A stretch of DNA of 64,000 nucleotides, taken from the IMG/VR virus record IMGVR_UViG_3300044652_000022, positions 1-64,000 of that record; one strand, written 5' to 3'. Shown here one piece after another: positions 1,335 through 60,668 of the stretch. The notes under the pieces were generated by a model. That model was not told the origin of the DNA. It searched no databases and was given only the letters and a program-made list of their open reading frames with translations. Both the position numbers and the translations under genes were made by a program. Each line of letters starts with the position of its first letter. The stretch's first letter is position 1. The stretch is from a virus (taxonomy: Duplodnaviria > Caudoviricetes).

Positions 1335-1406
1335 CGGCTCTGCTCGCTTCCGCTGTCGGAAAGGGCTGTGCAGGTCCAGGAGGCGTCGGAAAATCGAGCA
1401 GCGCCG
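1335..1406. repeat. Imperfect inverted repeat built from two copies of the dispersed GCAG-CC core
   Basis: cggctctgctcg (1335-1346) / cgagcagcgccg (1395-1406), with an inner ttccg/cggaa pair. Confidence 0.7.
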
Positions 1407-1463
1407 ATCTAATGAGCCGACCTGTCCTGACATTTTGACCGATTCCTGTACAATTCAGTCGGA

Positions 1464-1733
1464 ATGGGAAAACCGAAAGAGGAAAGACCCCGCATCCCAA
1501 TAAAAATTGGCGCTCGCGGGCAATTCGTCAAGATCAACGGGCGAATCCTGCAAGTGGATGAGATTCGCTCCGTAAGCCCGCTGTCGCGCGGGATCCACCG
1601 GTCGGACTGCGTGCTGACCCACATCCTCCACCTGAAGCCAGGTTGCATGGGCGACGATCCAAATAAGGCGATCAAAAAGCTCTGGATCACGGATGAGGAA
1701 TACGAAGCCCTGGAGAAACTACTACTCACATGA
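1464..1733 (+). CDS. Hypothetical protein
   Basis: 89-aa ORF, first of the plus-strand run, divergent from int. Confidence 0.6.
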   Translation: MGKPKEERPRIPIKIGARGQFVKINGRILQVDEIRSVSPLSRGIHRSDCVLTHILHLKPGCMGDDPNKAIKKLWITDEEYEALEKLLLT

Positions 1734-1745
1734 ACTGGAGAGAAA

Positions 1746-2507
1746 ATGACCGCTGAACTCGAAGCCGTTGCGCATTTTCTTCAGGAGGCTGGCGACCACT
1801 TTGCGCGAAACAAGACGCCAATGCCCTCCGCCCTGCGCGAGGCGTTGGGCGTTCTGCCTACCTTGCAGCGGCGCGAAAAATCGCTTAACAAAATCCTCGT
1901 CCTGGCTAATGAATGGGGCTGGGACGGCGTGACGAACTCGAAGATCCTCGAGAACTTCCTGGAAGAGTTCGTCAACGGCTTGCAAGCGCAATTAGCCATC
2001 ACCCAGAAAATGGGTGCCCTTACGACAGCGGCGAGACGCGCCGACGCGCGCGGAGAAGAGGCGCTTCGCGAAGTCTTAGACGCTAAGGAAGAGGCGCGGA
2101 AACAGTGGGTGCGCACCGCCTACAGCCTTTTTCAGGTGCTGCTGCCCTTTATTGATGCCTATAAAAAGTACCGAGAATCGGTGACGAAAATCGGCTCGGT
2201 GCAAGCCGATACACCGCACGTGGACATTGCACATTTCGAGCGAGCCTGGCGCGAAACGTTCGACCTCCTAAAAAACGACGAACCGCCGTTGTACTTCATC
2301 CAAAACAAAGGGCACGTCGGCAACTGCTTGCTATGGTGGCGGAAGGGTAGTCACGGGTACACGACCGACCTCAATGAAGCGGAGCAGTTCACGGAGGAAG
2401 AAGCGCGCAAGATCGTCACAGGGCGCCGCCCGCAGGAAGATTTCATGTACCCGGTTTCGGCTGTGCTGCTGGCAGCGCAGCGGCATGTGGTGGAAGGAGC
2501 CTTGTAA
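1746..2507 (+). CDS. Hypothetical phage protein (coiled coil plus C-terminal GNCLLWW..GYTTDL domain)
   Basis: 253-aa ORF with GGAG RBS; the C-terminal motif is typical of small phage proteins. Confidence 0.7.
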   Translation: MTAELEAVAHFLQEAGDHFARNKTPMPSALREALGVLPTLQRREKSLNKILVLANEWGWDGVTNSKILENFLEEFVNGLQAQLAITQKMGALTTAARRADARGEEALREVLDAKEEARKQWVRTAYSLFQVLLPFIDAYKKYRESVTKIGSVQADTPHVDIAHFERAWRETFDLLKNDEPPLYFIQNKGHVGNCLLWWRKGSHGYTTDLNEAEQFTEEEARKIVTGRRPQEDFMYPVSAVLLAAQRHVVEGAL

Positions 2508-2700
2508 TGGAGACCTGGTTCACCTTCAACGGCGTCGGCATCCTGCTGACGACAGGCCGACACCTCCACGAAATTCAGAACTGGCCGGCGTGGGAGCCCG
2601 ACGTAATCCTTTCGGTGTACGAAGGCGAGGTCCGCGTCCTGCGTTCCAAACCCAACATGGTGCTGCTGACAAAATGACGAAAAATTTTTGGCGGAAGCCA

Positions 2701-2730
2701 TTGACACCTCCCTATAGTTTTCGTCATAAT
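2701..2730 (+). promoter_or_regulatory. Early promoter P1 (CCTATAGTTT-box class)
   Basis: TTGACA-18-CATAAT; ATG follows 6 nt later. Confidence 0.85.
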
Positions 2731-2736
2731 TTACGC

Positions 2737-3117: not shown

Positions 3118-3139
3118 AAATGAAGCGAGAGGAGTTCAC

Positions 3140-3436: not shown

Positions 3437-3455
3437 AATTATTTTTGGAAGCGGG

Positions 3456-3484
3456 TTGACGCGCGCCTATAGTTTCCCTATAAT
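3456..3484 (+). promoter_or_regulatory. Early promoter P2
   Basis: TTGACG-17-TATAAT; ATG follows 7 nt later. Confidence 0.9.
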
Positions 3485-3491
3485 TAACAGT

Positions 3492-4808: not shown

Positions 4809-4827
4809 AACGCTACAGGTTTTTGCC

Positions 4828-5184: not shown

Positions 5185-5323
5185 GGTTACATCCCCAAAC
5201 CTCGAAAACCGCTTGAATGCCCCTGAGCAGCCTTGGCGTATAACCGATCGCCAAAACTTCCGGATACCAAGTACCGGAAAATCGTTACGACGCAGCAGAA
5301 CCAGAGCTAACCGGGCTGCTCGC
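5184..5323 (+). repeat. ~140-bp structured repeat E1 (paralog of 13072-13211)
   Basis: Shares acatcccc, gcttga, gagcagc, cgtataaccgatcg, taccggaaaatcgtt, cgacgcagcag and ggctgctcgcc in the same order. Confidence 0.85.
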
Positions 5324-5359
5324 CGTCGCGATTTTCTTCCAAAATTCTCTTTGGAAGGG

Positions 5360-5389
5360 TTGACACACGCCTATAGTTTCCCTCATAAT
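5360..5389 (+). promoter_or_regulatory. Early promoter P3
   Basis: TTGACA-18-CATAAT; ATG at 5396. Confidence 0.9.
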
Positions 5390-5395
5390 TTCTAC

Positions 5396-5832: not shown

Positions 5833-5856
5833 TTCCAAAAAATCCTTGGAACCGGG

Positions 5857-5894: not shown

Positions 5895-7244
5895 ATGACG
5901 ACGCAGACACCAAACGATACCACGACTTGCGCGACGTGCGGGAAACTCGTCCGGGTCGAAGCCGCCATGAGCCGCGACGGACTCTATTGGCACCAGAGCT
6001 GTTCCGCTCCCGCTGCGACCCAGAAACCGAGCCTCACGGCTGCGGAATACGCTGCCGCTGTCGCTGCGCTGAAGTCGGCGGTTCAGGTGTCGTTCACCGA
6101 AATGTCGCGCCTCCGTCATGAGACGGCGGTGGCGAAGGTCCCGCTCGTTATCGACCACATCCAATCGTTCGTGGACGCTGGGGTGAAGGTGGTCGTGTTC
6201 GGTCACCATCATGACGTGCTCGATCCTATCGCCGCTGCGTTCCCGGGCATTTCGGTCGTTGTTGACGGCCGCGTGCCGGTGCCCAAGCGCCAGGCGAACG
6301 TTGACCGCTTCCAGAACGATCCCGATTGCCTGGTGTTCATTGGCGAGTTTCAGGCGGCTGGCACGGGCTGGACGCTGACGGCGGCTTCGAACGTCGTTTT
6401 CGCGGAGTTCGATTGGGTGCCCGGGAACATGAGCCAGTGCGAGGATCGCTGCAACCGCATCGGGCAGAAAAACGCCGTCCTCGCGCAGTACCTGGCGTTG
6501 GAGGGTTCGCTGGACGCGGTGATGGCGCACAAGCTGGTTTCGAAGGAATCGGTGATCTTCGACGCACTCGACCGCAAGCCTGAGCCTGCGCAGCCAATCA
6601 TCGTTCCTGCTGCGCCGACGACCGCTCCTTCAACGGGTTCAGTGAACCAGAATCCGCCCTCTAAGCCCGTCGTAAACGACCCGGTGCAAATCGCCGCGAT
6701 CCACGAGGCGCTTCGCCTTGTTGCTGGTGTTTGCGACGGCGCGCACATGCAGGATAACGTCGGGTTCAACGGAACGGATACGGACTTCGGGCGCCAGCTG
6801 GCGGCTCAGGATTCCATCAGCCCGCGTCAGGCGTTCGTCGCCGCGAAAATGCTTTTGAAGTATCACAAGCAGGTCGGCGCAGAGCGGATTCAGGTCTGCA
6901 AGGAGGCGATTGCGGACGCGACGGGTCAGGCGCGTCCCGCTGCTCCTGCTCCGAAGCCGGCGAAGGCTGCGAAGCCCGCTCCCGCCGCTCCGACGCAGCA
7001 GAGCCAGGCTGCTCCGCAGCAGCAACCCGCTGCTCCCAAGGGTAACCCGTACAAAGCGGGTACGCAGACGGCGAAAGCGTTCGATATCCTCTCCGACGGC
7101 CAATTTCATACGTGGGAGGAACTGAAAACTGCCAACCCAAAATGGCCCAAGGATTCGGTAATCGCAATCGCGAAGGACGCGGCTTCGATGGGCTGGACGA
7201 TCAATCGGACGAAGGAGGGCTTCCAGCTGACGCTGGGAGCCTAA
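5895..7244 (+). CDS. SNF2-family helicase, C-terminal lobe plus CDGA domain plus repeated C-terminal domain
   Basis: KVVVFGHH (IV), AAGTGWTLTAA (V), QCEDRCNRIGQ (VI). Confidence 0.88.
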   Translation: MTTQTPNDTTTCATCGKLVRVEAAMSRDGLYWHQSCSAPAATQKPSLTAAEYAAAVAALKSAVQVSFTEMSRLRHETAVAKVPLVIDHIQSFVDAGVKVVVFGHHHDVLDPIAAAFPGISVVVDGRVPVPKRQANVDRFQNDPDCLVFIGEFQAAGTGWTLTAASNVVFAEFDWVPGNMSQCEDRCNRIGQKNAVLAQYLALEGSLDAVMAHKLVSKESVIFDALDRKPEPAQPIIVPAAPTTAPSTGSVNQNPPSKPVVNDPVQIAAIHEALRLVAGVCDGAHMQDNVGFNGTDTDFGRQLAAQDSISPRQAFVAAKMLLKYHKQVGAERIQVCKEAIADATGQARPAAPAPKPAKAAKPAPAAPTQQSQAAPQQQPAAPKGNPYKAGTQTAKAFDILSDGQFHTWEELKTANPKWPKDSVIAIAKDAASMGWTINRTKEGFQLTLGA

Positions 7245-8803: not shown

Positions 8804-9153
8804 AACCAAAAATGAAACTGATCCATACGCTGGTTGTCTGCAAGGAATGCCCCTTCCGCAAAGGGCAGAGCTACCTCATGCCTGGTCGGGCTGCGGAAAT
8901 AGCCGATTATATGGGCGAGCAGGGCGGCGGAAAAATCTTTCCCTGCCATAAACACGCCGACGCACCGCGAGTGCGGGATCGGCTGGTATGCGCGGGCTCC
9001 ATTCTGTATGCGCTTCGGCGCGGGATCTGGACGCAGGCAATGCAGATTGGCGAGCGCCTGGGCCTTTACGACACCAGCAAAATCCGTCCTGCCGACGTGT
9101 ATCAATCGCGCGACGAAATGATCCGCGGCCATTCGCGCTGGCGAAAAAAATAG
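8800..9153 (+). CDS. Cys/His-rich phage protein (CxxCPF...CH...CAG; DUF6283-like)
   Basis: CKECPFRK, FPCHK, VCAGS. Confidence 0.6.
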   Translation: MKPKMKLIHTLVVCKECPFRKGQSYLMPGRAAEIADYMGEQGGGKIFPCHKHADAPRVRDRLVCAGSILYALRRGIWTQAMQIGERLGLYDTSKIRPADVYQSRDEMIRGHSRWRKK

Positions 9154-9177
9154 TCCAAAAAATTTTTGGCTTCCGGG

Positions 9178-9699: not shown

Positions 9700-10158
9700 A
9701 TGACGACGACGAACAACAGCAAGCGGGTGAAGTGCACGGGATGCGGGGCGCGGACGCGCCGGACGGATGGGCTCTGCGCGGCTTGCGCAGGGAAGCAAGC
9801 GGCGCCGGTGGCGACGACGCCCGAGGCGGCGGATGCGAATCCGACGGGGCCGGGGAAGCACATGGTGGCGGCAGCGACAACGCGCGCCAAGCGCCTTGCG
9901 GCGACGAACGGGCACGGGCTCAAGGGCGCGGCGCGTCTGGCGAAGCTCGATAATCCCTTCCGCCCGTCCAGCGCGCAATACGCCTATTTCGAGATCATGC
10001 GCGACGGCAAGGACCACACGTACGAGGAACTGAACAAAAAGCCGCAGGCCCGCTGGCCTAAAGACTTGGTGTGGTTTATGCTGGATCACGGCCGGAAGAA
10101 CGGTGGGTTTCGGATCATCAAGGAACGGAACACGGCTCGGATGGAGGTGTCGAAGTAG
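9700..10158 (+). CDS. Zn ribbon plus repeated C-terminal domain
   Basis: CTGC..CAAC, an Ala-rich linker, then NPFRPSS..DGKDHTYEEL..WPKD. Confidence 0.7.
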   Translation: MTTTNNSKRVKCTGCGARTRRTDGLCAACAGKQAAPVATTPEAADANPTGPGKHMVAAATTRAKRLAATNGHGLKGAARLAKLDNPFRPSSAQYAYFEIMRDGKDHTYEELNKKPQARWPKDLVWFMLDHGRKNGGFRIIKERNTARMEVSK

Positions 10159-13071: not shown

Positions 13072-13211
13072 GGGATACATCCCCGAATCTAGAAACGGCT
13101 TGACGCAGCCCGAGCAGCTTTGACGTATAACCGATCGTTTTCCGTTCTGGATGCTACCTACCGGAAAATCGTTTCGACGCAGCAGCGCCCGGAGCAGCCC
13201 GGCTGCTCGCC
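13072..13211 (+). repeat. ~140-bp structured repeat E2
   Basis: Collinear with 5184-5323; differences fall mostly in predicted loops. Confidence 0.85.
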
Positions 13212-13361
13212 GGAATCTTCCGAACGTCGAATCTGACCGAAAATCCCCTCCTCCGTTTGCATCCCTTATCCGAACCTGTATGATGATTCCGTGCAGACAG
13301 AACAAACCCGGAGCGGCGCTGCGCTGCCAGAAAATTTTTGGAAAAAAGTTAGGTTGGTGGG

Positions 13362-15209: not shown

Positions 15210-15818
15210 ATGCCACCCACTCTGTCTCCAACCGAAATCGAAGCGGTACGGGCTGCGGACAAGATGGAGGAGTTGGTCTACGAAAACGGCGCGCGGGTGG
15301 CGGTGGACGGACACAACCGCCGCCTGTTCGCGTCAGGCGGTGAGGCGTCGTTCCGCAGTCTTTGGGAGCAGGCGCTCCTGATCCGAAAAAAGCCCAGCAA
15401 AAACGAACGAAACGGACACGGACACAATATGCCATCCACCGATTGGAAAGAGAAGGCTCGCCAGCGCCTGCAGGAAAAAGCGGTCGAGGTCGAATCGTCT
15501 GAGGAGCAACAACAACCGAAAAAGCCCAAGCCACCTGCTGCGCCAGCCAAGATGGCAGCGACGGCTGCAAAAGTCGCGGCGGCGCGGGTGGGGCAATCCG
15601 CAGCGAAACTCGCGAATCCCTGCCGTCCTGGGTCCCAGTTGGCGCAAGCGTTCGATCTTCTGACGGACGGGCGCTTGCACGAATGGGAAGAGTTCCGCGC
15701 AATCAATCCCAAGTACCCGAAAGATCCCGCCGCCAACCTCTCCCGCGATCCCGAAGTCGCCAAGCATTGGACGATCATTCGCGGACCGGAGGGGGCGCAG
15801 ATGGTAGCCAAAAAATAA
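15210..15818 (+). CDS. Hypothetical protein with repeated C-terminal domain
   Basis: NPCRPGS..DGRLHEWEEF..KYPKD. Confidence 0.7.
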   Translation: MPPTLSPTEIEAVRAADKMEELVYENGARVAVDGHNRRLFASGGEASFRSLWEQALLIRKKPSKNERNGHGHNMPSTDWKEKARQRLQEKAVEVESSEEQQQPKKPKPPAAPAKMAATAAKVAAARVGQSAAKLANPCRPGSQLAQAFDLLTDGRLHEWEEFRAINPKYPKDPAANLSRDPEVAKHWTIIRGPEGAQMVAKK

Positions 15819-15885: not shown

Positions 15886-16905
15886 ATGGCAGCAAAATTG
15901 AAGGCACCCAAGACAGCGGAACTGAAAAAGGCGTTGGAGGGCTTGCTAGCCGCCTCTCCGACCAATCGCGTGAAGGCGCTCACGGCGGCGGTGCAGTGGT
16001 ACGACGCAGCCCTGCCGTATTTCATCCAGAACGTGCGCCTCGATCCGTCCAAACAAAAATTGTACGATCTGGCTACCAAGACCCGTTCGCAAGCGAACGG
16101 AACGAACCTCGTCCACGAGCAGGAAGTGGCGCTGAAGTCTACGGTTCAGTTGCTCGAAAAAGTCTGGAAGGACGCGGTGCCCAACCTGCCGTCGTCCGTG
16201 GACGCATACGCGGAATATCAGAAGCGCCGGGCGGCGCTGGAGGCTCAGGAAGCGGCGAACAAAGCGAAATACCAAGCCGTCGTCAACCTCCTCAATTTGG
16301 CGTTTGGCGGCGCTAACCTGAAGGTTTCGGTAATCGAGAGCCAGCAACCGCGCGCGATTGATTTCGGTGACGCGGGCGAGGTGAAAATCGTTCTCGGCGA
16401 CCAGCACGTCGCGGAACTGTCGAAGGTCCTGCAGCGGCAGGGTCCGCTGGACGTGATTTTCTCGGAGGTGTCGTACGCGGCGCGGGCGATGGGCGTGACC
16501 TCGACAAACAACGGGCCGGCGCTCGATCCCAAAGCCGTTGTCGCAAAACTTCCGACGTTGTTCGCCGGGATGCACACGGCTCTGAAGGGTGCGAAGGCGG
16601 CGAAGCCTGCTGTTACGAGGACCGCTGCTGCGCAGCAGCCCGGCGCTGCTGCGACGACGCCCACCCGCTCCGCTCCTGCGTCCAGCGGACCGCTCGTTGG
16701 CGGACTCTACAAGCCCGGAACAAACAACGCTATCGCGTTCCAGTTCCTCAGCGACCAGAAGTATCACACGTGGCAGGAAATCGCGCAGGGCACGGGCGCG
16801 AAGTACCCGAAAGACGGCCCGTACTACATCGGGAAGGACGGAGCGAAGAACGGCAAGTGGACGGTGCGGAAAGATAAGCACGGCGTCCAGCTGATCTTCA
16901 ACTAG
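15886..16905 (+). CDS. Hypothetical helical protein with repeated C-terminal domain
   Basis: ~340 aa; LYKPGT..SDQKYHTWQEI..KYPKD. Confidence 0.75.
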   Translation: MAAKLKAPKTAELKKALEGLLAASPTNRVKALTAAVQWYDAALPYFIQNVRLDPSKQKLYDLATKTRSQANGTNLVHEQEVALKSTVQLLEKVWKDAVPNLPSSVDAYAEYQKRRAALEAQEAANKAKYQAVVNLLNLAFGGANLKVSVIESQQPRAIDFGDAGEVKIVLGDQHVAELSKVLQRQGPLDVIFSEVSYAARAMGVTSTNNGPALDPKAVVAKLPTLFAGMHTALKGAKAAKPAVTRTAAAQQPGAAATTPTRSAPASSGPLVGGLYKPGTNNAIAFQFLSDQKYHTWQEIAQGTGAKYPKDGPYYIGKDGAKNGKWTVRKDKHGVQLIFN

Positions 16906-16908
16906 GAC

Positions 16909-16936
16909 AGGGGCCGGGCAACCGGCCCTCTTTTTT
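16909..16936 (+). terminator. Rho-independent terminator
   Basis: agggccgg-gcaaa-ccggccct followed by ctttttt. Confidence 0.85.
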
Positions 16937-18168: not shown

Positions 18169-18699
18169 ATGACCGATGCCGAACGTAGCGTCTGGATGCG
18201 GAGAGGTGTCGATGCAACCAGGAAATGCGATCTCGTCGGGTGCGGGCGACCAATCACCTTGGTCCGATACAAAGGACGCGACGGCGAGTTCTGCTCGAAC
18301 CAGTGCCTGGAAAAGAGCCTGGGTATCAGCTATTCGGGATCACAGCCAACGAAAGAGGAGCTAAACAATATGGCTACAAAAACGAAGTCCGCAAAAAAGC
18401 CCGCCAAGGCAAAGGCGGCTGCGGCGTCCGCTAACGGGACTGGCGGTGGAGAAAAGATCGCCGGGAAGTATCGTCCCGGATCTTCGATGGCGGTTTACCT
18501 GGAGCGTCTCTCCGACGAAAAGCCGCACACGATTGAGGAGCTTTCCGAGGGGCTGGCTATCAAGTACCCGGCCGACCCTCCGTTCTATCTGAAGAAACGC
18601 GGCGCGGAGGAAAAACTCTGGAAGATCGAGTACGACCGTGAATCCAAAACCTACACCATGACCCTGACCGCGAAGGGCAAAAAGCTGCTTGGCAAATAG
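18169..18699 (+). CDS. Zn-finger plus repeated C-terminal domain (possible internal start at 18370)
   Basis: CDLVGC..FCSNQC; an internal GAGGAG RBS; KYRPGS..SDEKPHTIEEL..KYPAD. Confidence 0.7.
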   Translation: MTDAERSVWMRRGVDATRKCDLVGCGRPITLVRYKGRDGEFCSNQCLEKSLGISYSGSQPTKEELNNMATKTKSAKKPAKAKAAAASANGTGGGEKIAGKYRPGSSMAVYLERLSDEKPHTIEELSEGLAIKYPADPPFYLKKRGAEEKLWKIEYDRESKTYTMTLTAKGKKLLGK

Positions 18700-18838: not shown

Positions 18839-19516
18839 ATGAGGAAATACGTCGTTGTTCACAGTGGAGGCCTTGATTCAACGGTCCTCCTTTACCACCT
18901 GCGCGATTTGGGGCACCACGTCCGCGCCTTGTCCGTCAATTATGGGCAGCGGCACGCCCACGAACTTCAGCAAGCGGTGAAAATCTGCAAGACTCTCGAT
19001 ATCGAGCACCAGTTTGCAGACCTCACCGGGATTACGCATTTGCTTGGCGGATCGAGCCAGACCGATCCGTCGATCCCTGTTCCACACGGGCACTACGCAG
19101 CAGAGAACATGAAGGTCACCGTCGTTCCCAATCGGAACATGATTATGCTCTCCGTCGCGATTGGCTGGGCGATCAGCACCAAGTCCGACGCAGTAGCGTA
19201 CGCAGCCCACGCCGGCGACCATACGATTTACCCAGACTGCCGGCCCGAGTTCGGCGCGGCGATGAACGTCGCGGCGTATTTGGCAGACTGGCATCAGGTG
19301 GAGGTGGTTCGCCCCTTCGTTAATTTCACCAAAGCCGAAATCGTTGCGTTCGGCGCCAAGCTGAATGTCCCTTTCCAGGATACGTATTCGTGCTATGAAG
19401 GGCGTCCGGTGCATTGCGGAAAGTGCGGAACCTGCGTGGAGCGCATCGAAGCCTTCCATCTTGCTAACGTGCCCGACCCAACCGAGTACGCTAATCCGGC
19501 GGCGGCGCTGGCGTGA
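18839..19516 (+). CDS. queC: 7-cyano-7-deazaguanine synthase
   Basis: [36 protein letters not shown]. Confidence 0.95.
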
Positions 19517-20118: not shown

Positions 20119-20296
20119 GAGGTGGGCTGTGCTGATAGGCTTCCTCTTTCGATGCGACGACTGCTTTACTCAGGCGAAAATCGGCGGCTCGAATCTGAAC
20201 GACGCCACCAAAGAACTGTGCCGGCAAGGGTGGACGGTAAAACAGGGCTTGAATCGAGCCGTCCACCTCTGCGAAAAATGCAAGCGCAAAGGCGCT

Positions 20297-20378
20297 GCTG
20301 CGTAACGTAGCGCCTTCCCTCCCTCTTCCCTTCCGTTCTCCTCCTTCCGACGCAGCAGAGCCAGAGCTAACGCGAGCA
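20297..20378 (+). repeat. Dispersed repeat copy
   Basis: cgcagcagagccagagctaacgcgagc; 9-bp inverted repeat ctgctgcgt/acgcagcag. Confidence 0.8.
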
Positions 20379-20713
20379 TTCTGGGTTCAGTCAACTGTCG
20401 GGTTGCAATTTCCCCTCGGATCCCGCAGAATGCGAGTAGAGAGGTGCCAAAATGACGACCGACCTCAAGCAAACGGCCGGCCGAGCCACTTCCGAAAATA
20501 ATCGCAACCGCGACCGTCGCAAATTCTTCCTTGCAGCCAGCGAACTCTCCATGAGCCCGGAGGAATACGACCGCGCCTTGCACGCCTACCTAAAAGCCAT
20601 TCTGCCTCCTGGTTCACCCTGCACCTGCACTCACTGCCTGCTGCGCAGAGCCGCTTAAACAACCGGGCTGGGATCGCTTGATTCCAGCCCATTATTGCGG
20701 CTGAAAATAGCGG

Positions 20714-23315: not shown

Positions 23316-23408
23316 CGTCGAAAATCGCGGTAGAATCGTTTCCTCCACCCGTTCCGGCTGTATTCCTCCACCTCCGGCTTCGGAAGCGAGCAGAACCAGG
23401 CTGCTCGC
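23316..23408 (+). repeat. Dispersed repeat copy
   Basis: gcgagcag-aaccagg-ctgctcgc hairpin; cgttccggctgtattcc is shared with the 36.8 kb copy. Confidence 0.75.
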
Positions 23409-23445
23409 CCGTAATCGAGAGGTTCTTTAGGTATTTTAGGCAACC

Positions 23446-23502
23446 CTTTGGCGGAATTGGGGATATTCCGCCCGGTGGGGGAGGTCTGAAATTCCGCCAA
23501 AG
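23446..23502. repeat. Perfect 13-bp inverted repeat
   Basis: ctttggcggaatt / aattccgccaaag. Confidence 0.85.
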
Positions 23503-23530
23503 ATTTTTGGAAGTTTTTTGGTCGGAAGGG

Positions 23531-23559
23531 TTGACACCACCTATAGTTTCCCTCATAAT
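23531..23559 (+). promoter_or_regulatory. Early promoter P11
   Basis: TTGACA-17-CATAAT; GTG at 23567. Confidence 0.9.
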
Positions 23560-28989: not shown

Positions 28990-29068
28990 AAAAAGAAATC
29001 CAGCCCTAAAGGTGGGGGAGTTTGTCGAGCCCCCACTTTCCTACCTCTCCCGTTTTAGAACGCAATAT

Positions 29069-29093
29069 AGCCAGAGCAGACGCGAGCAGCGCC
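29069..29093 (+). repeat. Dispersed repeat copy
   Basis: agccagagcagacgcgagcagcgcc. Confidence 0.7.
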
Positions 29094-29141
29094 CTCTGCA
29101 AAACTCTAGCCGAACTATAGGAATGGTTTAACGTTCGCGAG

Positions 29142-29169
29142 TTGACAAAGTGCAGAGTTTCGCTACAAT
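29142..29169 (+). promoter_or_regulatory. Sigma70 promoter with an inverted CCTATAGTT box upstream (29113-29121)
   Basis: TTGACA-16-TACAAT. Confidence 0.75.
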
Positions 29170-35064: not shown

Positions 35065-35140
35065 TGGGGCATAGCTCAAGCGGCAGAGCGCCGGACCTTG
35101 ATTCCGGAGGTTGCAGGTTCGAAGCCTGCTGCCCCAGCCA
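35065..35140 (+). tRNA. tRNA-Gln(UUG)
   Basis: 76 nt; TGGGGCA/TGCCCCA acceptor stem, D arm GCTC/GAGC, anticodon arm CCGGA-CCTTGAT-TCCGG, TTCGAAG loop, encoded CCA. Confidence 0.9.
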
Positions 35141-35167: not shown

Positions 35168-36721
35168 GTGCCCAAGTCCGTCGCCCCTCCGCCTCCCAAA
35201 AAGCAAAAGTACATCCCGCGGAAACAGTTCCTCGCGCAAAAACACGCCGGCGTGATCCCTGGCAGCGTCCAGTTCATCGACTACAAGCCGCGCGGCGCCA
35301 TCAAGCAAATTTTCAGCCTAAGGATCCCGGAATGGGTGCTGTCGGGACCAGCCGGGACTGGGAAGTCTCGCGGCTGTCTAGAAAAAGCGCACTGGATGCT
35401 GGAGAAGTATCCAAACGCGCGCGGGCTGATGGTGCGCAAGACGCGGAACAGCATGAACCAGTCCTGCATCGTCACGTTCGAAAACAAAGTCCTCCCCACC
35501 CCAACCTACGTTCCCTTCCACACGACCGATCAGGAATACCGCTATCCCAACGGCTCGATATTCGCCGTAGCCGGGATCGACGACCCGAAGAAAATCTATT
35601 CGTCAGAGTGGGACTTCTGTTACGTCAACCAGGCGGAGGAACTGACCGAGGACGATTGGGAGAACATCAAATCCCGGCTCCGCAACTGGAAGATGCCGTA
35701 TCAATCGTTGTTTGCGGACTGCAACCCGGACGCGCCTTCGCACTGGATTCGGACGCGCGCCGCCACCGGGATGCTGCAACTGCTCGAAAGCCGCCACGAG
35801 GATAACCCGGAACTGTGGGACGAGGTAAACAAGTGCTGGACGGAGCGAGGGCGGCAGTACGTTTTAGAGATCCTCGATAAACTTACCGGCGTCCGCTACA
35901 AGCGTTTGCGGCTCGGGCAGTGGGCGGCGGCGGAAGGGACGGTGTACGAGGACGTCTGGGACCGCGCCGTCCATATTATTGATCGCTTTTATCCCAACGT
36001 TCCTTTGGACCGCGATCAAGTCCCACCCGACTGGCCGCGGTACTGGGTGATTGATTTTGGCTATACGAATCCGTTCGTCTGGCAGGCTTGGGCGGAGGAC
36101 CCCGACGGGCGCCTGATCCGCTACAAGGAAATCTACCACACAAAACGATTGGTCGAGGACCACGCCCGCCAGATCCTCGAGGTCACGAAATACGATCCGA
36201 AACCGAAACTGATCGTATGCGACCACGACGCCGAAGACCGAGCGACGTTAGAAAAGTACCTCGGGATGCCAACCAAGGCGGCGTGGAAGTCTGTGAGCCC
36301 TGGCATTCAAGCGGTGGCGGCGAGACTGCGAGTCCAGGACGACGGCAAACCGCGTTTGATGTACATGCGCGATTCGGTCATCGAACTCGACCAGGAACTC
36401 CTCCGCCAGCACCTCCCGACCTCGACCGAGGATGAATACGACGTTTACGCCTGGGATATCGCGACGGCAGGCAAACCGCGCAAGCGAGGAATCGGCGAGG
36501 AGCCAATCAAGAAATACGACCACGGGATGGACGATACGCGGTACATCGTCACGTACATCGACAAGACCTGGGAGATCAAGCCGCACCTGTTCAAGATGAT
36601 TTCCGTGACCAAGTCAGGATCCGACACGCCAGACAATCTGCACTCCGGAAGCGGCTGGCGGATGGGAAACACGAACGCTCCAAGCAAGTTTGGGGGTGGG
36701 AGCGGGAGGTTTCGTGAATAA
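35168..36721 (+). CDS. terL: Terminase large subunit (PBSX-like)
   Basis: GPAGTGKS Walker A, DCNP, IDFGYTNP nuclease motif, DHGMDDTRY. Confidence 0.93.
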   Translation: MPKSVAPPPPKKQKYIPRKQFLAQKHAGVIPGSVQFIDYKPRGAIKQIFSLRIPEWVLSGPAGTGKSRGCLEKAHWMLEKYPNARGLMVRKTRNSMNQSCIVTFENKVLPTPTYVPFHTTDQEYRYPNGSIFAVAGIDDPKKIYSSEWDFCYVNQAEELTEDDWENIKSRLRNWKMPYQSLFADCNPDAPSHWIRTRAATGMLQLLESRHEDNPELWDEVNKCWTERGRQYVLEILDKLTGVRYKRLRLGQWAAAEGTVYEDVWDRAVHIIDRFYPNVPLDRDQVPPDWPRYWVIDFGYTNPFVWQAWAEDPDGRLIRYKEIYHTKRLVEDHARQILEVTKYDPKPKLIVCDHDAEDRATLEKYLGMPTKAAWKSVSPGIQAVAARLRVQDDGKPRLMYMRDSVIELDQELLRQHLPTSTEDEYDVYAWDIATAGKPRKRGIGEEPIKKYDHGMDDTRYIVTYIDKTWEIKPHLFKMISVTKSGSDTPDNLHSGSGWRMGNTNAPSKFGGGSGRFRE

Positions 36722-36739
36722 TCTCTGTTTCCGCCGCGA

Positions 36740-36840
36740 AAATCCACCCGCTGCTCCGCGTTTGCTCTGGTTCTGCTCGATTCCGACGCCGGAACTGGTG
36801 GAATACAGCCGGAACGCCGCTTCCGATCGCTTATAGACCA
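36740..36840 (-). repeat. Dispersed repeat copy (minus strand)
   Basis: Reverse complement reads tggtctataagcgatcg...tcgagcagaaccagagcaaacgcggagcag. Confidence 0.8.
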
Positions 36841-36921
36841 TGCTCTTCCCAGGGAAATATCGCCACCCGAGGCACTTCGCTATTACCCAGGAGCTAGTGA
36901 AAGCAGATTATAAGGTGTGGA

Positions 36922-38343: not shown

Positions 38344-39837
38344 ATGGCGCTAATCGACCGCGTGTCCAAACTCATCCCCTCGGCGTCGTCGCGGATGGGC
38401 ATTTTAGGCAATAGCGCCGCCGTCGCTCTTCCAGGTCGCGGTGGCGTGCCCGACATGCCGCGTCCGCGTCCCTTCGACGAACTGGGCGTGTCCGGCTTGA
38501 ATCGGATGCGCGGCATCGGGACGGTCAATGAAGAATGGCTGATTGACCTGTCCGGGAATCGGTGGAAGCAAATCTACCGCGAGATGCGCGACAACGATCC
38601 CGTTATCGGTGCGATGTTCTTCGCTCTGGAGACCATCCTCCGCAAAGCGGAATGGTCCGTCGAACCAGCCAAGGGACCCGACGGCGACAACATCGCCCAG
38701 TTCATCCGCGACTGCATGGACGACATGTCGCATACGTGGGAGGACTTTATTGCCGAGTGCGTCTCCCAGTTCACCTTCGGATTCGCGCTATTCGAGACCG
38801 TATACAAGCGCCGCAAGGGGATGAACGGAAAGCACGCCTCCCGGTTTGGCGACGGGCTGATTGGCTGGCGCAAATTCGCGCCTCGCGCCCAGGAGTCTAT
38901 CGTGTACTGGGTTTGGGACGAGGAAGGCGGGTTGCAGGGAGCGCAGCAGCTAGCTCCGCCCGACTACAAGCTCTGCACTCTCCCAATTGAAAAACTGATG
39001 CTCTTCCGCACCACCTCGCTGAAGAACAACCCGGAGGGAAGGTCCATTCTGCGGAACTGCTATCGCCCGTGGTTCTTCAAGCGCCGCATCGAAGAGGTGG
39101 AAGGGATCGGGATCGAGCGAGACCTCTGCGGGTTGCCGGTCCTCTATGCGACCGAAGAGGCCCTTGGGCAAATGGGTGGTGAGAACGCCGCGCGGACTCT
39201 TGTGCGGAACATTCGCGTGGACGACCAAGCTGGCGTCGTTCTCCCTCAGGCCTTCGACGACAAAGGCAATCCGCTGGTCAAGCTGGAACTTTTAAAAGCT
39301 GCCGGAGCCAAACAGACGGACCCGGACAAGACCATCACGCGGTACAATCAGGATATTTTGAACACGATGCTCGCCGGGTTCATTCAATTCGGCCAGACAC
39401 CCACCGGGTCGCGGTCGTTGCACGTTTCCGCCACCGAAATCTTCTCGCTCGCGATTACGACGTTCATGGACGGCGTGGCTGCGGTGATGAACCGCTACGC
39501 CATCCCGCGCCTGATGGCGCTGAATCAGATGGATCTGGAAAAAGCGCCGCGCCTGATCCCAGGTGAAATCGGCGTCCGCGATTTAGAAGAGCTTGCGGAC
39601 TTCGTGCAAAAGCTGTCCCAGGCTGGGTTGACGTTCTGGGATCCGCCAACCGTCGATTACCTGCGCAAGATGGCGCGGTTGCCCAAGGCGCCGCCCGAGG
39701 AAGCCATGCCGCCCGCGGCGCAGAATCCCGAAGGGGAACCGCAGCCTGGACAATTGCCTCCAGGACAAGCGCCCGCCGGGTCTGAAGGGCCTCAGGATCA
39801 GGCGGAGGCGCAGCGGCAGCTGGAGGGCGTGGCGTGA
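38344..39837 (+). CDS. Portal protein (DUF935/Mu gp29-like)
   Basis: YREMRDNDPVIG, NPEGRSILRNCY, ERDLCGLP; position after TerL. Confidence 0.9.
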   Translation: MALIDRVSKLIPSASSRMGILGNSAAVALPGRGGVPDMPRPRPFDELGVSGLNRMRGIGTVNEEWLIDLSGNRWKQIYREMRDNDPVIGAMFFALETILRKAEWSVEPAKGPDGDNIAQFIRDCMDDMSHTWEDFIAECVSQFTFGFALFETVYKRRKGMNGKHASRFGDGLIGWRKFAPRAQESIVYWVWDEEGGLQGAQQLAPPDYKLCTLPIEKLMLFRTTSLKNNPEGRSILRNCYRPWFFKRRIEEVEGIGIERDLCGLPVLYATEEALGQMGGENAARTLVRNIRVDDQAGVVLPQAFDDKGNPLVKLELLKAAGAKQTDPDKTITRYNQDILNTMLAGFIQFGQTPTGSRSLHVSATEIFSLAITTFMDGVAAVMNRYAIPRLMALNQMDLEKAPRLIPGEIGVRDLEELADFVQKLSQAGLTFWDPPTVDYLRKMARLPKAPPEEAMPPAAQNPEGEPQPGQLPPGQAPAGSEGPQDQAEAQRQLEGVA

Positions 39838-43887: not shown

Positions 43888-43979
43888 GCGCTAGCTTGGC
43901 GTATAAAGCCTTTTCGCACGTTCGCCGGTGGTAAGCATGGAAACCTCGCTCAGGATCGCTTATACGCCGAGCTTTGCGC
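43888..43979 (+). repeat. Long hairpin related to the dispersed repeat 5' end
   Basis: agcttggcgtataa/ttatacgccgagct; cttggcgtataa is identical to E1. Confidence 0.7.
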
Positions 43980-44018
43980 AGCAGCACCGCAGTTTTTCCG
44001 CAGGAAAGGAGTAGATCC

Positions 44019-54354: not shown

Positions 54355-55356
54355 ATGCCTCAACCGACCTTAGCAGATATTCACGTAAACCGACCGCTGA
54401 CGAACCTCACGGTCGGCTACGTCCAGGACGCCTCGGACTTCGCGGCCGGACAGCTTTTTCCCAGCGTGCCCGTCACGTCTCGATCGGATCTGTACTACGT
54501 GTACAACCGCGGCGACTTCTTCCGCAACAACATGCAGAAGCGGGCGCCGGGAACTCCCGCGGCTGCTGGCGGCTACAAGCTGACCACGGCGCCGTATACG
54601 GCGGACGTTTGGGCGCTCAAGAAAATCATTGACGACCAGATCCGCGCCAACTACGAGTCGCCGCTCGACGCTGAACGCGACGCCACGCAGTGGCTCACGC
54701 AGCAGGCCCTCATCAATCGCGACGTGAACTTCGTCGCCGCCTATTTTGGCACCGGCATCTGGGGCACGGACCTGACCGGGCATCCGACCACCGCCGACGC
54801 CACGCATTTCATCCAGTGGTCCAACACGGCCTCGACCCCCATCGACGACATCCTCAACGCCCAGCTTTACATGAAGCGGACGACTGGGATGTGGCCGAAC
54901 GTGCTGGCTCTGGGCGCGCAGGTCTACATCAAACTCCTGACGCACCCGCAGATCATCGACCGCTTGAAATACGGTCAAACGGGACCTGGTCCGGTGGTCG
55001 TCAGCACCTCCGACCTCCAGGCTCTGTTCAAAGTGGACAAGGTCGTGGTCATGTCGGCGATCCAGACGACTTCGCCGGAGAACATGGACCCGACGGGCGC
55101 TGGCGACACGTTCGACTTCATCGCCGGGAAACACGCCCTCCTCGCCTACGCCTCTCCGAATCCCGGGCTCATGCAGCCCTCCGCCGGGTACACGTTCAAT
55201 TGGACCGGGCTGACGGGCGCCACGGCCGCTGGCATTCGGATCAAGAAATTCCGCTGGGAAGTCGACGCTGCCGACCACCTGGAAATCGAGCAGGCTTACG
55301 CCTTCGGTAAAGTGGCGGCGGAGTTGGGCTACTTCTTCAGCGGCGCCGTGGCGTAG
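54355..55356 (+). CDS. Major capsid protein (HK97 fold)
   Basis: VNRPLTNLTVGY, FPSVPV; 333 aa; strong codon bias; synteny. Confidence 0.88.
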   Translation: MPQPTLADIHVNRPLTNLTVGYVQDASDFAAGQLFPSVPVTSRSDLYYVYNRGDFFRNNMQKRAPGTPAAAGGYKLTTAPYTADVWALKKIIDDQIRANYESPLDAERDATQWLTQQALINRDVNFVAAYFGTGIWGTDLTGHPTTADATHFIQWSNTASTPIDDILNAQLYMKRTTGMWPNVLALGAQVYIKLLTHPQIIDRLKYGQTGPGPVVVSTSDLQALFKVDKVVVMSAIQTTSPENMDPTGAGDTFDFIAGKHALLAYASPNPGLMQPSAGYTFNWTGLTGATAAGIRIKKFRWEVDAADHLEIEQAYAFGKVAAELGYFFSGAVA

Positions 55357-56807: not shown

Positions 56808-59347
56808 AGTCCTTGGCCATTCAGGTTACCGTAGTAGTATCGCTGATCCTCGCGGCTCTGCTCCTCGCTCAGGTGCAAAACGTTCCCAATACCACCTTCC
56901 CCACTGTGCGCTCGCTGCTGAATCAGAATTTTACCTGGCTGAACAACAACAAAGCTAGGACGGGTGATTGTCCTTCAGGCAAGTTTGCGATGCGACTAGG
57001 AGCCGGCGGCGTAACCTGTATTTCCGTTGACTGGTCGATGGTGACGAATAAACCCGATATCATGCCGCCCACGTTCTCTACGCATCAAACGAACGGCTGC
57101 TATTTCTTCCCGGACAACAGCATTTTCCACGCCGACATGAGCGGCGCACCGCGCGACGATTGGGCTACGGCGTGGTTTATTGGAAAGCGGTATCCCATCA
57201 CCGCAGCGACCTGGCTGAATGGCGTGGTCACGGCCACCGTAGCCTCGACGGCTGGGATTGCGTCAGGCATCAAGGGCTACATCGACGGTGCAAGACCAGC
57301 GCGCCTCGCTGCCGGATACACAACCGGCGTCGGTTCTCCGTTTGGATCCGCGAACCCGCGCGACACTCGCGTCACCATCACCGTTCCCCCTGTCGATCAA
57401 TGCCCTAACGGCTTGCCGTGCTTTCAGTATCCTGTCGCGTCAGATCCTGGAGCGTATCCAGGCAACCTATCGTTTTCGATTGGGCCTTACGGTTCTGCGA
57501 ATTTCGGGACTACAGGTCCGGCGATGGTTCTGAACACAGCCGACGCCACCACGCCGCGGTACATGATTCAAACGGGCCCTGGTCCCGATGGGCTAGACGC
57601 TGGGACGCCCATGCTGTTAGAGAGTGACGCAGGACCGTATCCGATCCTGCCGTCATATCAGATTGAAGGCGGCTACACGATCCAGAACGGCGCTCCCGAT
57701 CCGTTTCAGGACAACCATGTCCTTACGCTCGATACCTCAGCCTGCTACCTGTACGAAATCTTTGCCTTCCCGGGACCCGCGAGCGGACCGCCATTCGTCA
57801 ACGGCGGCGGCGCAGTCTGGAACCTGCGATCCAACGCCATGCGGCGCGACGGATGGACGAGCGCAGACGCCGCCGGGTTGCCAATCTGGCCTTTTGTTCT
57901 GACGCGCGGTCAGGCGTTTGGCGATGATCCAATCGAGGGGCCAATTCGCGTAACCTTCGTATCGACACCTGCCTACTATCGCTTTCCTGCCACCCACTTC
58001 GCCGCGTCATATTCCTACAATCAGTGGCCGCCCTTCGGGACTTGGTTCCGTCTGCGTCGGGACTTCGATATTTCCGGGTTCCCGGTTGGCGGAGACGGCG
58101 TGACGCCGAAGATGCAGAAAATCCTCGCCGCGTGGAAAAAATACGGCGTTATCAACGCTGACAACGGCGGGACAGGGTTCATCACCATCGACCATTCCTT
58201 TTCTGCAAACGACGACTCGGCGCTGGTCACGCAACTGCACAATCTTTGGCTGGAGAGCTTCGAGGTCGTCTGCACCGCCTGCCTGCAAAAGCAAATCGAC
58301 TCTTACGAAGTCAAGCCCTTTACCCCAGTCAGCGTACCGCGCCTGAATCAGGTTGTCGTCACGGCTAGCCAAACTGGCTTATACCTGACAGTGGACGGGC
58401 AGGGCTGCTACGCGCCTTGCCAGGTGTTCTGGAACTCGAACGACGTACACACTATTTCCGCACCGCTGCAAACGAACGGGAATATCCAGTACACGTTTGC
58501 ATCGTGGAGCGATGGCGGAGCAGGCTCGCATACGACCTCGGTCACGGACGCGGCTACGATCACCGCGACTTTCACGGCGCAATACACGCAGCCCTCCGCC
58601 CCAACCTTCTCCTCGACGCTGAACGCTGTGGCTCCAGGGACCGTGATTACAGCGAGCACCGTTCCAGCTTCCTGCAACGGGTTCGTGCATATCAGCACCA
58701 CCAACCCACCCACGTTGACCGACCCAGCCACCTACACCATCAATACGCCTGTGACGCTGTACGCCAACGTCCTGGGATGTCCAATAACCATCGCGCCCAA
58801 CTCGACCGTGTCCTCGGCGTCCTTCTCGATGCTCTTTACCGACACCTTCTCTGGGACGGGCGTGCTGAACGCGGCTAATTGGACTCGCATTCCAACACTG
58901 AGCTACGGGTCAGGGAACACGCTGATCCAGAGTGCAGGGACCGCGATTCCTGCTGCGATCAATAGCGGCGCCGCGTACATCGTCACCGGGCAGACCTTCA
59001 CCCGCGCGCAGTTCTCGCAGACGACAGTAAACACGTACGCCTCAGGTGGAGTGGTCTTGTATGTCTTGATGGACGCGAACGGGAACGGCTACGGGTGGAT
59101 CGGAACGAACCTCAACCGGTACACCGCCGGCGTCCCGTCGTGGATGCAAAGCTGCGCCGCGCCGGCTCCTGGAAACACGATCCGCCTCGAGTCCGACGGT
59201 GCTGGTGGGATTCGGACGTACATCAATAACGTGTTCTCCTGCCTCGCCACCGACCAGACGTATACAACCGGATCGCCTGGCGTGTTCGTCGGCGCTGGCG
59301 GAACGATTAACGCTTCGATTTCGAATTACCAAGCTGGGAACCGATAA
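56804..59347 (+). CDS. Secreted-type multidomain protein
   Basis: Signal peptide; WTSADAAGLP..KKYG..ADNG domain; Ig-like and lectin-like C-terminal parts. Confidence 0.75.
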   Translation: MKSLAIQVTVVVSLILAALLLAQVQNVPNTTFPTVRSLLNQNFTWLNNNKARTGDCPSGKFAMRLGAGGVTCISVDWSMVTNKPDIMPPTFSTHQTNGCYFFPDNSIFHADMSGAPRDDWATAWFIGKRYPITAATWLNGVVTATVASTAGIASGIKGYIDGARPARLAAGYTTGVGSPFGSANPRDTRVTITVPPVDQCPNGLPCFQYPVASDPGAYPGNLSFSIGPYGSANFGTTGPAMVLNTADATTPRYMIQTGPGPDGLDAGTPMLLESDAGPYPILPSYQIEGGYTIQNGAPDPFQDNHVLTLDTSACYLYEIFAFPGPASGPPFVNGGGAVWNLRSNAMRRDGWTSADAAGLPIWPFVLTRGQAFGDDPIEGPIRVTFVSTPAYYRFPATHFAASYSYNQWPPFGTWFRLRRDFDISGFPVGGDGVTPKMQKILAAWKKYGVINADNGGTGFITIDHSFSANDDSALVTQLHNLWLESFEVVCTACLQKQIDSYEVKPFTPVSVPRLNQVVVTASQTGLYLTVDGQGCYAPCQVFWNSNDVHTISAPLQTNGNIQYTFASWSDGGAGSHTTSVTDAATITATFTAQYTQPSAPTFSSTLNAVAPGTVITASTVPASCNGFVHISTTNPPTLTDPATYTINTPVTLYANVLGCPITIAPNSTVSSASFSMLFTDTFSGTGVLNAANWTRIPTLSYGSGNTLIQSAGTAIPAAINSGAAYIVTGQTFTRAQFSQTTVNTYASGGVVLYVLMDANGNGYGWIGTNLNRYTAGVPSWMQSCAAPAPGNTIRLESDGAGGIRTYINNVFSCLATDQTYTTGSPGVFVGAGGTINASISNYQAGNR

Positions 59348-59697
59348 TGCCAGTATCCGATTGGGCAGACCTCGCCAAGCAAACGATTGTCTGGGAACCG
59401 GCGACGAGTCGAGATCGCTACGGCAAACCGCAATACGGAGGGATAAAGAAATACACGTTTCAGGGACGGCGGGTAAACAAGGTATCGCGTCGTCCAGGCG
59501 GAAACAATCAAGGCGTGGACCTGGTTTCGGAATCTACCATCTGGATTCTGGGAACGCCCAATATCAAGTACGAGGACCGGGTGTACGTCGAAGGCGACGA
59601 ACCGCCATACCCGAACATCCTCAGCATTGACCGCTACCCGGATGAAACGGGTCAGGATCTGTACGTGAAAGTCTCGCTAGGGAGTGCAAAAGGATGA
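59347..59697 (+). CDS. Head closure protein
   Basis: DRYGKP..DRVYV; synteny. Confidence 0.7.
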   Translation: MPVSDWADLAKQTIVWEPATSRDRYGKPQYGGIKKYTFQGRRVNKVSRRPGGNNQGVDLVSESTIWILGTPNIKYEDRVYVEGDEPPYPNILSIDRYPDETGQDLYVKVSLGSAKG

Positions 59698-59836
59698 CAG
59701 TAGAGGTCTTTCGTTTGCTATACGGCAAACTCAGCGTGCGGCTGAACAACCGGGAGGTGGCGCTCATCGACTCACGGCCAGATGAGCGAGCGCTGGCTAG
59801 CCTTCTGCGCAAGGTCAGCGAGGAGGTCGAAAAGGA

Positions 59837-60223
59837 ATGCCTCGACTCAGCTTTGAAGTCGCTATCACAACCCAAAAGAATGTCGGAGCCCGGGCGCGCC
59901 AAGCCGCTGCTCGTGCGCTCTACCAGTTCGCCGAGGAGGTGATGGCCGAGTCCAAGCGCATCGTTCCTGTGGACACAGGTGCGTTGATGAACACGGGTAC
60001 CGTGATGCCGCCTGTGGACAATGGACGCGAGATCATGGTTGAGATGGGCTACGGTTCGCAGTCGGTCGATTACGCCGTGTACGTTCACGAAAACATGGCG
60101 CCGGTCAAATGGCAGCGTCCCGGATCCGGGCCCAAGTATTTGGAGACGCCCCTGAAAGAAAAACAGGACAGCTTGCCCGACCGTATCGCCTCGGCCATCG
60201 AAGCGGCTTTGAGGAATCCGTAA
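59837..60223 (+). CDS. HK97 gp10-like tail completion protein
   Basis: VPVDTGALMNTG, YAVYVHE, KYLETP. Confidence 0.85.
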   Translation: MPRLSFEVAITTQKNVGARARQAAARALYQFAEEVMAESKRIVPVDTGALMNTGTVMPPVDNGREIMVEMGYGSQSVDYAVYVHENMAPVKWQRPGSGPKYLETPLKEKQDSLPDRIASAIEAALRNP

Positions 60224-60603
60224 TGCCCCTTTTGGAAGACATTGCCGACTACCTGACCACGCACGGGGTGGTGACAGCGCCGTGGACGCTGTATATAGGA
60301 ACGTTCCCGGACGATCAAGACCAGGTCATTGGCTTGTTTGCGACTGGCGGCGAGCCGTTCGATACGCTCGGACGCGAGAATGTCCGCCCGACGTTTCAGA
60401 CGCGCGTCCGCGCCGCGGCGTCGGATTACGGAGTCGGGTACGCCAAGTGGAAGCAGATTTTTGACACGTTGCAGGACGCAATACCAACCTCCGCCTATGC
60501 TTACGTGCAGGCGACAGCAACTGGACCGCTGGCGTTTTCTGACGACAAGGAACGGCCCAACTTCACGTCGAATTGGCGGGTTTTAATGTCGCGGAACGGG
60601 TAA
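60223..60603 (+). CDS. Tail terminator (minor capsid 3-like)
   Basis: IADYL..P.FQ.RVR..D.KERPNFT.N. Confidence 0.75.
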   Translation: MPLLEDIADYLTTHGVVTAPWTLYIGTFPDDQDQVIGLFATGGEPFDTLGRENVRPTFQTRVRAAASDYGVGYAKWKQIFDTLQDAIPTSAYAYVQATATGPLAFSDDKERPNFTSNWRVLMSRNG

Positions 60604-60604
60604 A

Positions 60605-60668
60605 GCGGTAGGAAACATCCACCCGGCAGCGGAAAATCGAGCAGAGCCAGAGCAAACGCGAAGCTCCG
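60605..60668 (+). repeat. Dispersed repeat copy
   Basis: cggaaaatcgagcagagccagagcaaacgcg. Confidence 0.8.

Follow-up and report, generated by a model that had tools for sequence, protein, structure and literature searches.

What is the role of a sequence that recurs, in variable form, in the gaps between the gene blocks of a single phage genome? We addressed this question in IMG/VR record IMGVR_UViG_3300044652_000022, a linear record of 75,153 bp from an uncultivated temperate phage (Duplodnaviria; Caudoviricetes) that is ~79% complete according to CheckV and has a GC content of 58%. The window analysed here is the first 64 kb of this record (positions 1 to 64,000). We identified eleven related copies of a modular GC-rich sequence, known here as copies A to K, all of which lie in gaps between gene blocks. 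The eleventh, copy J at 64599(+), lies just outside the window and has a reverse-complement partner at 64539(-). We tentatively read these copies as 'punctuation' elements at the boundaries between transcription units.

A modular repeat family between gene blocks

An initial annotation of this DNA had listed ten sites on both strands, and related sequence is present at every one of them. A profile built from the copies (nhmmer) recovered exactly these sites together with 64599(+) and its partner 64539(-), and the sole other match with E < 1 was a coding low-complexity stretch at 6992. The family is thus real, but its core is less uniform than the annotation had claimed, since the full 20-22 nt box is found in only four clean and three degenerate copies. 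With up to 3 mismatches allowed, the strict 20-nt core GCAGMRCCAGAGCWAACGCG occurs just at 5295, 20355, 36757(-) and 60641, compared with 0.08 occurrences in shuffled sequences. The remaining copies keep only its 5' part, AGCAGnnCC, and this 9-nt part is common to all eleven. Genome-wide, we counted 22 instances of AGCAG[ACT][AG]CC, where Markov simulations gave 3.8 +/- 2.1; 13 of them belong to the intergenic fraction, which makes up 15.4% of the genome (P = 3e-6; gene boundaries were taken from our own codon-bias gene caller). In addition, CGGAAAATCG has four exact copies where 0.5 would be expected, and every one of them is inside the repeat family. The annotation had also described the core as often preceded by a further sequence; TTGGCGTATAA is indeed present, ~60 nt upstream of the core and not immediately adjacent to it.

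The copies occur in early and late regions alike, as had been noted. Nearly all genes are called in the rightward direction, and every copy follows the stop codon of a gene block. The early region contains at least 12 sigma-70-type promoters sharing a conserved spacer box, and such a promoter follows copies B, C, D, F and G at a distance of 30-180 nt. Five copies have no promoter nearby, and copy E is located ~50 nt upstream of a weaker candidate, TTGCAA-N17-CAGAAT, which was read by eye. Promoters lacking a copy lie in short gaps of 39-79 nt. No sigma-70 promoters were found in the late region, where copy H lies between the large terminase gene and a small conserved open reading frame (ORF), copy K precedes a polyvalent head-protein cassette, copy I separates the connector gene from a sialyltransferase-like gene, and copy J precedes a 1055-aa ORF taken as the tape-measure gene. 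Ten of the eleven copies are oriented in the direction of transcription, counting copy A, which points toward the integrase gene (P = 0.006). The blocks between copies measure ~3-17 kb and the spacing is more even than random (coefficient of variation 0.52; P = 0.03 against uniform positions and 0.009 against random gaps). The candidate roles proposed in the initial annotation were incomplete in that this position at the end of gene blocks, often right before the next promoter, had been missed.

Each copy combines up to three modules in mosaic fashion. Module M1, GGCGTATAAsCGATCG, is found at 5233, 13120 and 36841(-) and as an inverted pair at 43896 and 43970(-); M2 is a TTCCG-loop-CGGAA mini-hairpin; and M3, the core, consists of a GC-rich arm, (C)GAGCAGnnCC, followed by the box, CCAGAGCWAACGCG or AGAGCWAACGCG. 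Copies C, E, H and I have the full core, which is degenerate in G, B and A, the last of these with a 10-nt insertion. In D, F and J, a complement of the arm stands in place of the box, giving a simple hairpin. Comparison of the intergenic gaps by blastn revealed several mosaic pairs: C and D (5188-5325 and 13076-13212) are related over 139 nt at 76% identity, F and H (23350-23399 and 36816-36767, inverted) over 50 nt at 90%, H and I (36745-36782 and 60672-60635, inverted) over 38 nt at 89%, C and E (5288-5311 and 20348-20371) over 24 nt at 96%, and E and I (20354-20375 and 60640-60661) over 22 nt at 95%. Copies C, E and I have stretches of 22-24 nt in common amid unrelated flanks. A segmental gene duplication was considered for the paralogous copies C and D and ruled out, because their flanking genes are unrelated.

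Three further interpretations of the modules were tried and rejected. M1 is not a promoter, as its TTGAAT/TTGACG precedes TATAAC by 20 nt, a distance too great for sigma-70, and H and K do not have this pairing. A promoter of the extracytoplasmic function (ECF) type was rejected because the interval between CGGAA and AACGCG is not constant (17 to 28 nt), and a tyrosine-recombinase core site was rejected because the geometry fits only F and J.

The individual copies illustrate this variation (z scores are against dinucleotide shuffles and E values are from the nhmmer profile). Copy A (1311..1363, minus strand) includes a TTCCG-ACAG-CGGAA mini-hairpin, GCGAGCAGAGCC and the box split by its insertion (E = 1.6e-4); its core at 1335(-) is directed toward the minus-strand tyrosine integrase gene (333-1256). 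Copy B (1381..1426, plus strand) consists of CGGAAAATCGAGCAGCGCC and a degenerate box that ends ~10 nt upstream of the -35 element (1427) of the first rightward promoter. Together A and B form a long imperfect inverted repeat, and the region 1330-1415 folds at -39.1 kcal/mol (z -2.7). Copy C (5233..5338, plus strand) carries M1 at 5233-5250, the M2 hairpin at 5258-5280 and the core at 5291-5314, then a closing arm, CTGCTCGCCGTCGCGATTTTC, and a T-rich tail (z -3.4), with the next promoter -35 at 5360. Its paralogue D (13120..13232, plus strand) has M1, M2 and CGCAGCAGCGCC, and the palindrome GAGCAGCCCGGCTGCTC replaces the box (z -0.8); D (13180) and F (23386) have only AGCAGnnCC(AG) in common with the core.

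Copy E (20289..20386, plus strand) has a hairpin over the stop codon (GGCGCTGCTGCG...), which is followed by a C/T-rich tract and the full core at 20351-20375 (E = 3.9e-7). Copy F (23326..23431, plus strand) has a degenerate M1, a duplicated TTCCGGC unit and the M2 hairpin, followed by a perfect hairpin, GCGAGCAG-AACCAGG-CTGCTCGC, and a T-rich tail (z -2.3); the next promoter is at 23531. Copy G (29047..29101, plus strand) contains the 3' part of the box, AGCCAGAGCAGACGCG, and then GAGCAGCGCC (E = 1e-4), and is flanked by a hairpin at 29011-29040, with a short T-run and a C/T-rich tail, and by a promoter at 29142. The complete composite is found in copy H (36731..36845, minus strand), with an M1-like module, M2, the full core, a closing stem CCACC/GGGTGG and TTTT (E = 4e-7). 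Copy K (43893..43995, plus strand) is built on the inverted M1 pair (TTGGCGTATAA) at 43896 and 43970(-), which forms a 15-bp stem (z -1.2; E = 8e-3). The annotation had given K as a 5' part only; a weak core, CGCAGCAGCACC, lies at 43977, with AGCAGCACC at 43980, 80 nt downstream, and is followed by TTTTT. Copy I (60618..60673, plus strand) has a closing stem CACCCGG/CCGGGTG around CGGAAAATCG and the full core, then TTTAAAAA (z -1.8), and fills the 89-nt gap from the connector gene to the sialyltransferase-like gene.

Folding and the boundary reading

The initial annotation had placed most copies in a hairpin. This holds in so far as seven of the eleven have a nearby CTGCTC partner for the GAGCAG arm, but only four of the nine folded regions are more stable than their shuffles (1330-1415, 5255-5345, 23345-23430 and 60615-60680, all with z <= -1.8). 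In all four of these well-folding regions the z score is slightly lower on the sense strand (z -1.8 to -3.4), and wobble pairs in the stems 43896/43970 and 64537/64610 are possible on the sense strand only. A run of 3-4 T is located 33-38 nt after AGCAG in A, B, C, F, H and I and nearer in J and K, although for copy B this run falls within the promoter and is probably a coincidence. With a hairpin and a U-run of 3-5, copies C, F, H (on the minus strand) and I have the form of a putative intrinsic terminator, and D, E and G do not. A standard terminator scan (loop <=8) picks up none of C, F, H and I, and a home-made permissive scan was too noisy to discriminate in this GC-rich genome. Short-loop intrinsic terminators are at or below shuffle expectation in this phage; ordinary terminators are therefore scarce, and other signals may end transcripts.

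Several neighbouring features deserve mention in this context. The hairpin at 16910-16929, followed by CTTTTTT, is a canonical terminator and suggests that the host polymerase uses ordinary terminators. Just upstream of copy G, the 29011-29040 hairpin also resembles an ordinary terminator. C/T-rich, G-poor tracts, 25-35 nt long, are found before several copies (20317-20350, 23340-23370, 29040-29063 and, in the genome, 64552-64570), and their composition resembles that of Rho-utilisation sites.

Our preferred reading, to which we give a probability of roughly 40%, is that the copies are lineage-specific boundary elements between transcription units that may act by termination or attenuation. 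The family and its modules, together with its placement, orientation and spacing, are direct observations, and the mechanism proposed for them is as follows. In a sense transcript, the GAGCAG arm would pair with a nearby CTGCTC, or an outer stem would close around the core. The GC-rich hairpin formed in this way, usually with a short U-run after it, would terminate or attenuate the transcription that arrives from the gene block before it and would protect the following promoter or block against read-through. The box is probably a recognition site that a phage or host factor acting on these boundaries would bind, and the family may have spread in the genome via duplication and recombination between copies.

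A number of results weigh against this reading. Five of the nine folded regions, those of D, E, G, H and K, are indistinguishable from shuffles, and copy H, the sole copy opposed to transcription and no stabler than shuffles, is inverted relative to its flanking genes. The U-runs are short, and there are none in D, E and G. In E and G, moreover, a separate hairpin precedes the box, and the box is thus not itself the terminator in these two copies. RNAalifold found no consensus fold (0 pairs) for the six full-box copies, and the box occupies the 5' arm of some copies and falls within a large loop of others (H and I). As there is no common fold, the family is not a structured-RNA family, and the primary sequence is the conserved feature; yet a terminator needs no conserved primary sequence.

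Relatives and alternative explanations

The initial annotation knew of no matching element, and our searches agree with it in Rfam, GenBank phages, IMG/VR and related loci. Rfam, at gathering and at permissive thresholds, gave tRNA only and nothing with E < 0.9 over a copy. There was no match in 50,697 GenBank phages to the 158-nt copy C by blastn, nor to 20 kb of the record by megablast. No contig matched in an exact-pattern scan of IMG/VR, a fuzzy pattern and an nhmmer profile run over 1.3 Mb of related loci and over L124, the locus of a related topoisomerase-like protein, gave nothing significant, and repeat analysis of three whole relatives (G002, G003 and G005) showed no analogous multi-copy family. 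Among 802 genomes sampled from two candidate host phyla, chosen as those in which related prophages occur, none had more than 3 near-matches, which equals the reversed-pattern control. One Binatia metagenome-assembled genome (MAG), G010, has a near-match, GCAGCGCCAGGGCAAGCGCG, that is identical on six contigs; it probably reflects an insertion sequence or a gene present several times, and it has no relation to the phage family.

These results should be seen against the distance of the available relatives. For the large terminase (35168-36721), the closest relative in IMG/VR, JGI metagenomes and GTDB genomes has 64% amino-acid identity, and relatives further off are from Chloroflexota, Armatimonadales and Binatia MAGs. 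The best relative of an early topoisomerase-like protein has 70% amino-acid identity, and the motif was not found in its locus (L124). The phage belongs to a lineage that appears linked to Chloroflexota or Armatimonadota and is without a studied member. The initial annotation had suggested that a lack of conservation in related phages would speak against the element. That lack was indeed observed, yet it is uninformative because the nearest relatives show only 64-70% amino-acid identity even in the best-conserved genes. At the connector/sialyltransferase-like junction, the only one that is cleanly conserved, the closest relative has ~13 nt compared with 89 nt including copy I in this phage, and copy I is therefore a lineage-specific addition.

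The main rival to the boundary reading, which we consider somewhat unlikely, is that the box and arm (~22 nt, GAGCAGARCCAGAGCWAACGCG) are a double-stranded DNA docking site for a phage protein, serving as an operator, a stoperator-like roadblock or an architectural landmark, so that the hairpin potential would be secondary. This would better account for sequence conservation without a common fold, given that the primary sequence is kept whatever the structure and that identity has sharp limits amid unrelated flanks (E against I, 22 nt, 95%). It also suits the inverted pair A and B, which is found immediately before the first rightward promoter, within the divergent integrase/early control region. 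Inversion, as in copy H, poses no difficulty for a site on DNA, the helical phase is unaffected by the 10 nt inserted into copy A, and orientation follows transcription, as in stoperators (PMC9283540). On the other hand, with a whole box in only four clean and three degenerate copies and ~9 nt in the rest, the family is far less uniform than known operator or stoperator sets, the box-to-promoter distance ranges from 30 to 180 nt, and a docking site is less able to explain the four copies with the arm only. There was no HTH_3 match and, in a PHROGs search, no regulator in 30 early-region ORFs of a record that is itself ~79% complete.

A candidate reader for such a site is present. A C-terminal domain of ~65 aa in five early proteins (7041-7241, 9949-10155, 15612-15815, 16699-16902 and 18460-18696) models as a winged helix-turn-helix (HTH) with a mean pLDDT of 82. 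Its best matches in the PDB are weak (E >= 0.03) and include the BirA N-terminal domain, the T4 MotA activation domain and MarR- and ArsR-type regulators. The domain has no Pfam match and no relatives in an IMG/VR pattern scan. Its carriers are otherwise unrelated, and one is the second half of a split SNF2-type helicase. Conceivably, though very improbably, the box is an address for this domain, by which several enzymes would be recruited to about eleven evenly spaced DNA landmarks, and the copies would not be simple terminators. Against this candidate reader, nothing connects the domain with the repeat in preference to the spacer box of the promoters.

It is also possible, although unlikely, that the copies are selfish or neutral homology patches that recombined between gaps and provide crossover points for gene cassettes, with little regulatory role. 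The mosaic sharing of modules is what such patches would give, copy I is dispensable at its junction (~13 nt in the closest relative), no equivalent family is found in G002, G003, G005 or L124, the flanking genes are mostly ORFans, and there is a precedent in the promoter-early stem-loops (PeSLs) of T4-type phages (PMC2839356). The even spacing fits this poorly, however, as does identity that is sharply bounded at 22 nt amid unrelated flanks, which argues for selection on the box, and no uniform ends, target duplications or Y1-type transposase were found in the record. The presence of about ten intergenic sense-strand copies in early and late regions is compatible with RNA processing signals on polycistronic transcripts, cut by RNase III or a similar nuclease. 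A/B, C, K and the copy at 64537-64625 have long irregular stems, of ~15-26 bp and interrupted by internal loops, and phage T7 has five such signals in its early precursor (PMC3867540). We consider this improbable, given that D, E, G, H and I are without extended duplex and that there is no common fold.

The roles that the initial annotation itself had put forward, namely a host-type REP-like element (repetitive extragenic palindrome, as in bacterial interspersed mosaic elements, BIMEs), a small-RNA gene family, or priming or segregation sites, are even taken jointly the explanation to which we give least credence. They have in their favour a general likeness only, the copies being short, partly palindromic, intergenic and multi-copy. 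Against REP-like elements stand the lack of uniform palindromes among the copies, the absence of a Y1 transposase from the record and the count of no more than 3 matches per genome in 802 genomes, which equals the control. A small-RNA family is not supported, with no Rfam match, no consensus fold and no promoter of its own, and there is no positive evidence for segregation or priming sites, with no ParB in the record and an integrase present. More generally, the 75-kb record contains no Y1 transposase (PF01797), ParB, sigma factor or XRE-type HTH.

Known systems, genomic setting and significance

The closest likenesses are to two phage systems. The PeSLs of the T4-type phages RB49 and phi1 are present in ~50 intergenic copies, in which a stem-loop blocks upstream transcription (Arbiol et al. 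2010, PMC2839356). Like them, the elements reported here are ~100 nt long, intergenic and present in multiple copies, each with a stem-loop (here a predicted terminator), and they are associated with strong sigma-70-type promoters and ORFans, have a few copies in virion modules and may be used as crossover points. In contrast to PeSLs, the promoter is not in the repeat and belongs to a separate family with its own spacer box, five copies are without a nearby promoter, there are 11 copies rather than ~50, and the stems are GAGCAG/CTGCTC instead of GGGG/CCCC. In cluster A mycobacteriophages, the stoperators number more than 20; they are uniform, 13 bp long and bound by a cognate repressor of the L5 gp71 type (PMC9283540). 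They resemble the present family in belonging to a temperate phage and in being asymmetric, intergenic, found in early and late regions and oriented with transcription (10 of 11 here), with one copy beside an early promoter. The box described here, however, is ~22 nt long, complete in 4-7 copies and situated inside hairpin-forming modules, and no repressor was identified. The family is thus neither PeSL nor stoperator, although it is most like these, because a defining feature of each fails: the promoter is outside the repeat, and the sites are not uniform or numerous. We place it with the general phage intergenic boundary or regulatory repeats and in neither named family.

Two other systems are more distant. 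Bacterial REP and BIME elements are short GC-rich palindromic intergenic repeats, uniform at 20-40 nt, with a GTAG head and associated RAYT (Y1) transposases. The phage copies are likewise short, GC-rich, partly palindromic and intergenic, but there are no uniform palindromes, conserved GTAG head or RAYT, and the sequence is not multi-copy in the 802 sampled genomes. The RNase III processing signals of phage T7 mRNA were reportedly treated by Dunn and Studier in 1983. As in the T7 early mRNA precursor with its five intergenic RNase III processing signals (PMC3867540), the phage has a handful of intergenic sense-strand irregular hairpins along polycistronic transcripts, but extended duplex is found in only about four copies and there is no conserved internal-loop architecture.

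The remaining gene layout may be summarized briefly. Besides the integrase and large terminase genes, we identified genes for the portal (38344-39837) and the major head protein (54355-55356) and a tRNA-Gln at 35065, which was the sole Rfam match above its threshold. Family matches are missing for most early ORFs, and the genes flanking the copies are mostly ORFans. The gene directly after copy I (60693-61361) has a sialyltransferase-like PHROG match (E = 3e-33), and a sialyltransferase-like gene adjoins the connector gene in the closest relative too. A QueC-like gene at 18977-19516 (phrog_1550, E = 5e-47) may indicate that the phage DNA carries 7-deazaguanine modifications.

The boxed promoters have two features of their own. 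At no fewer than eight of them (within 2701-25427), a start codon lies 6-9 nt past the -10 hexamer with no ribosome-binding site, and many early mRNAs are therefore probably leaderless; examples are 2730/2737, 3484/3492, 5389/5396, 12450/12458, 20742/20750, 23559/23567 and 1454/1464. An AT-rich palindrome, TTCCAAAA...TTTTGGAA, is found directly upstream of the -35 element at several boxed promoters (5332-5351, 5833-5853, 9150-9170, 13330-13350 and 23499-23520). It is distinct from the repeat family and may be an operator or an UP-like element.

Boundary repeats are a familiar feature of phages, and the sequence described here appears, from the databases searched, to be a new one. As it stands, the family is a further example of a common phage design, without conserved relatives. 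If the boundary reading is true, the transcription map of this phage would be readable from sequence alone, with five or six early blocks and about five late ones. If, in turn, the box is a docking site for a protein, it would be a new recognition sequence, possibly with a new reader domain, and would join the few genome-wide site arrays of phages.

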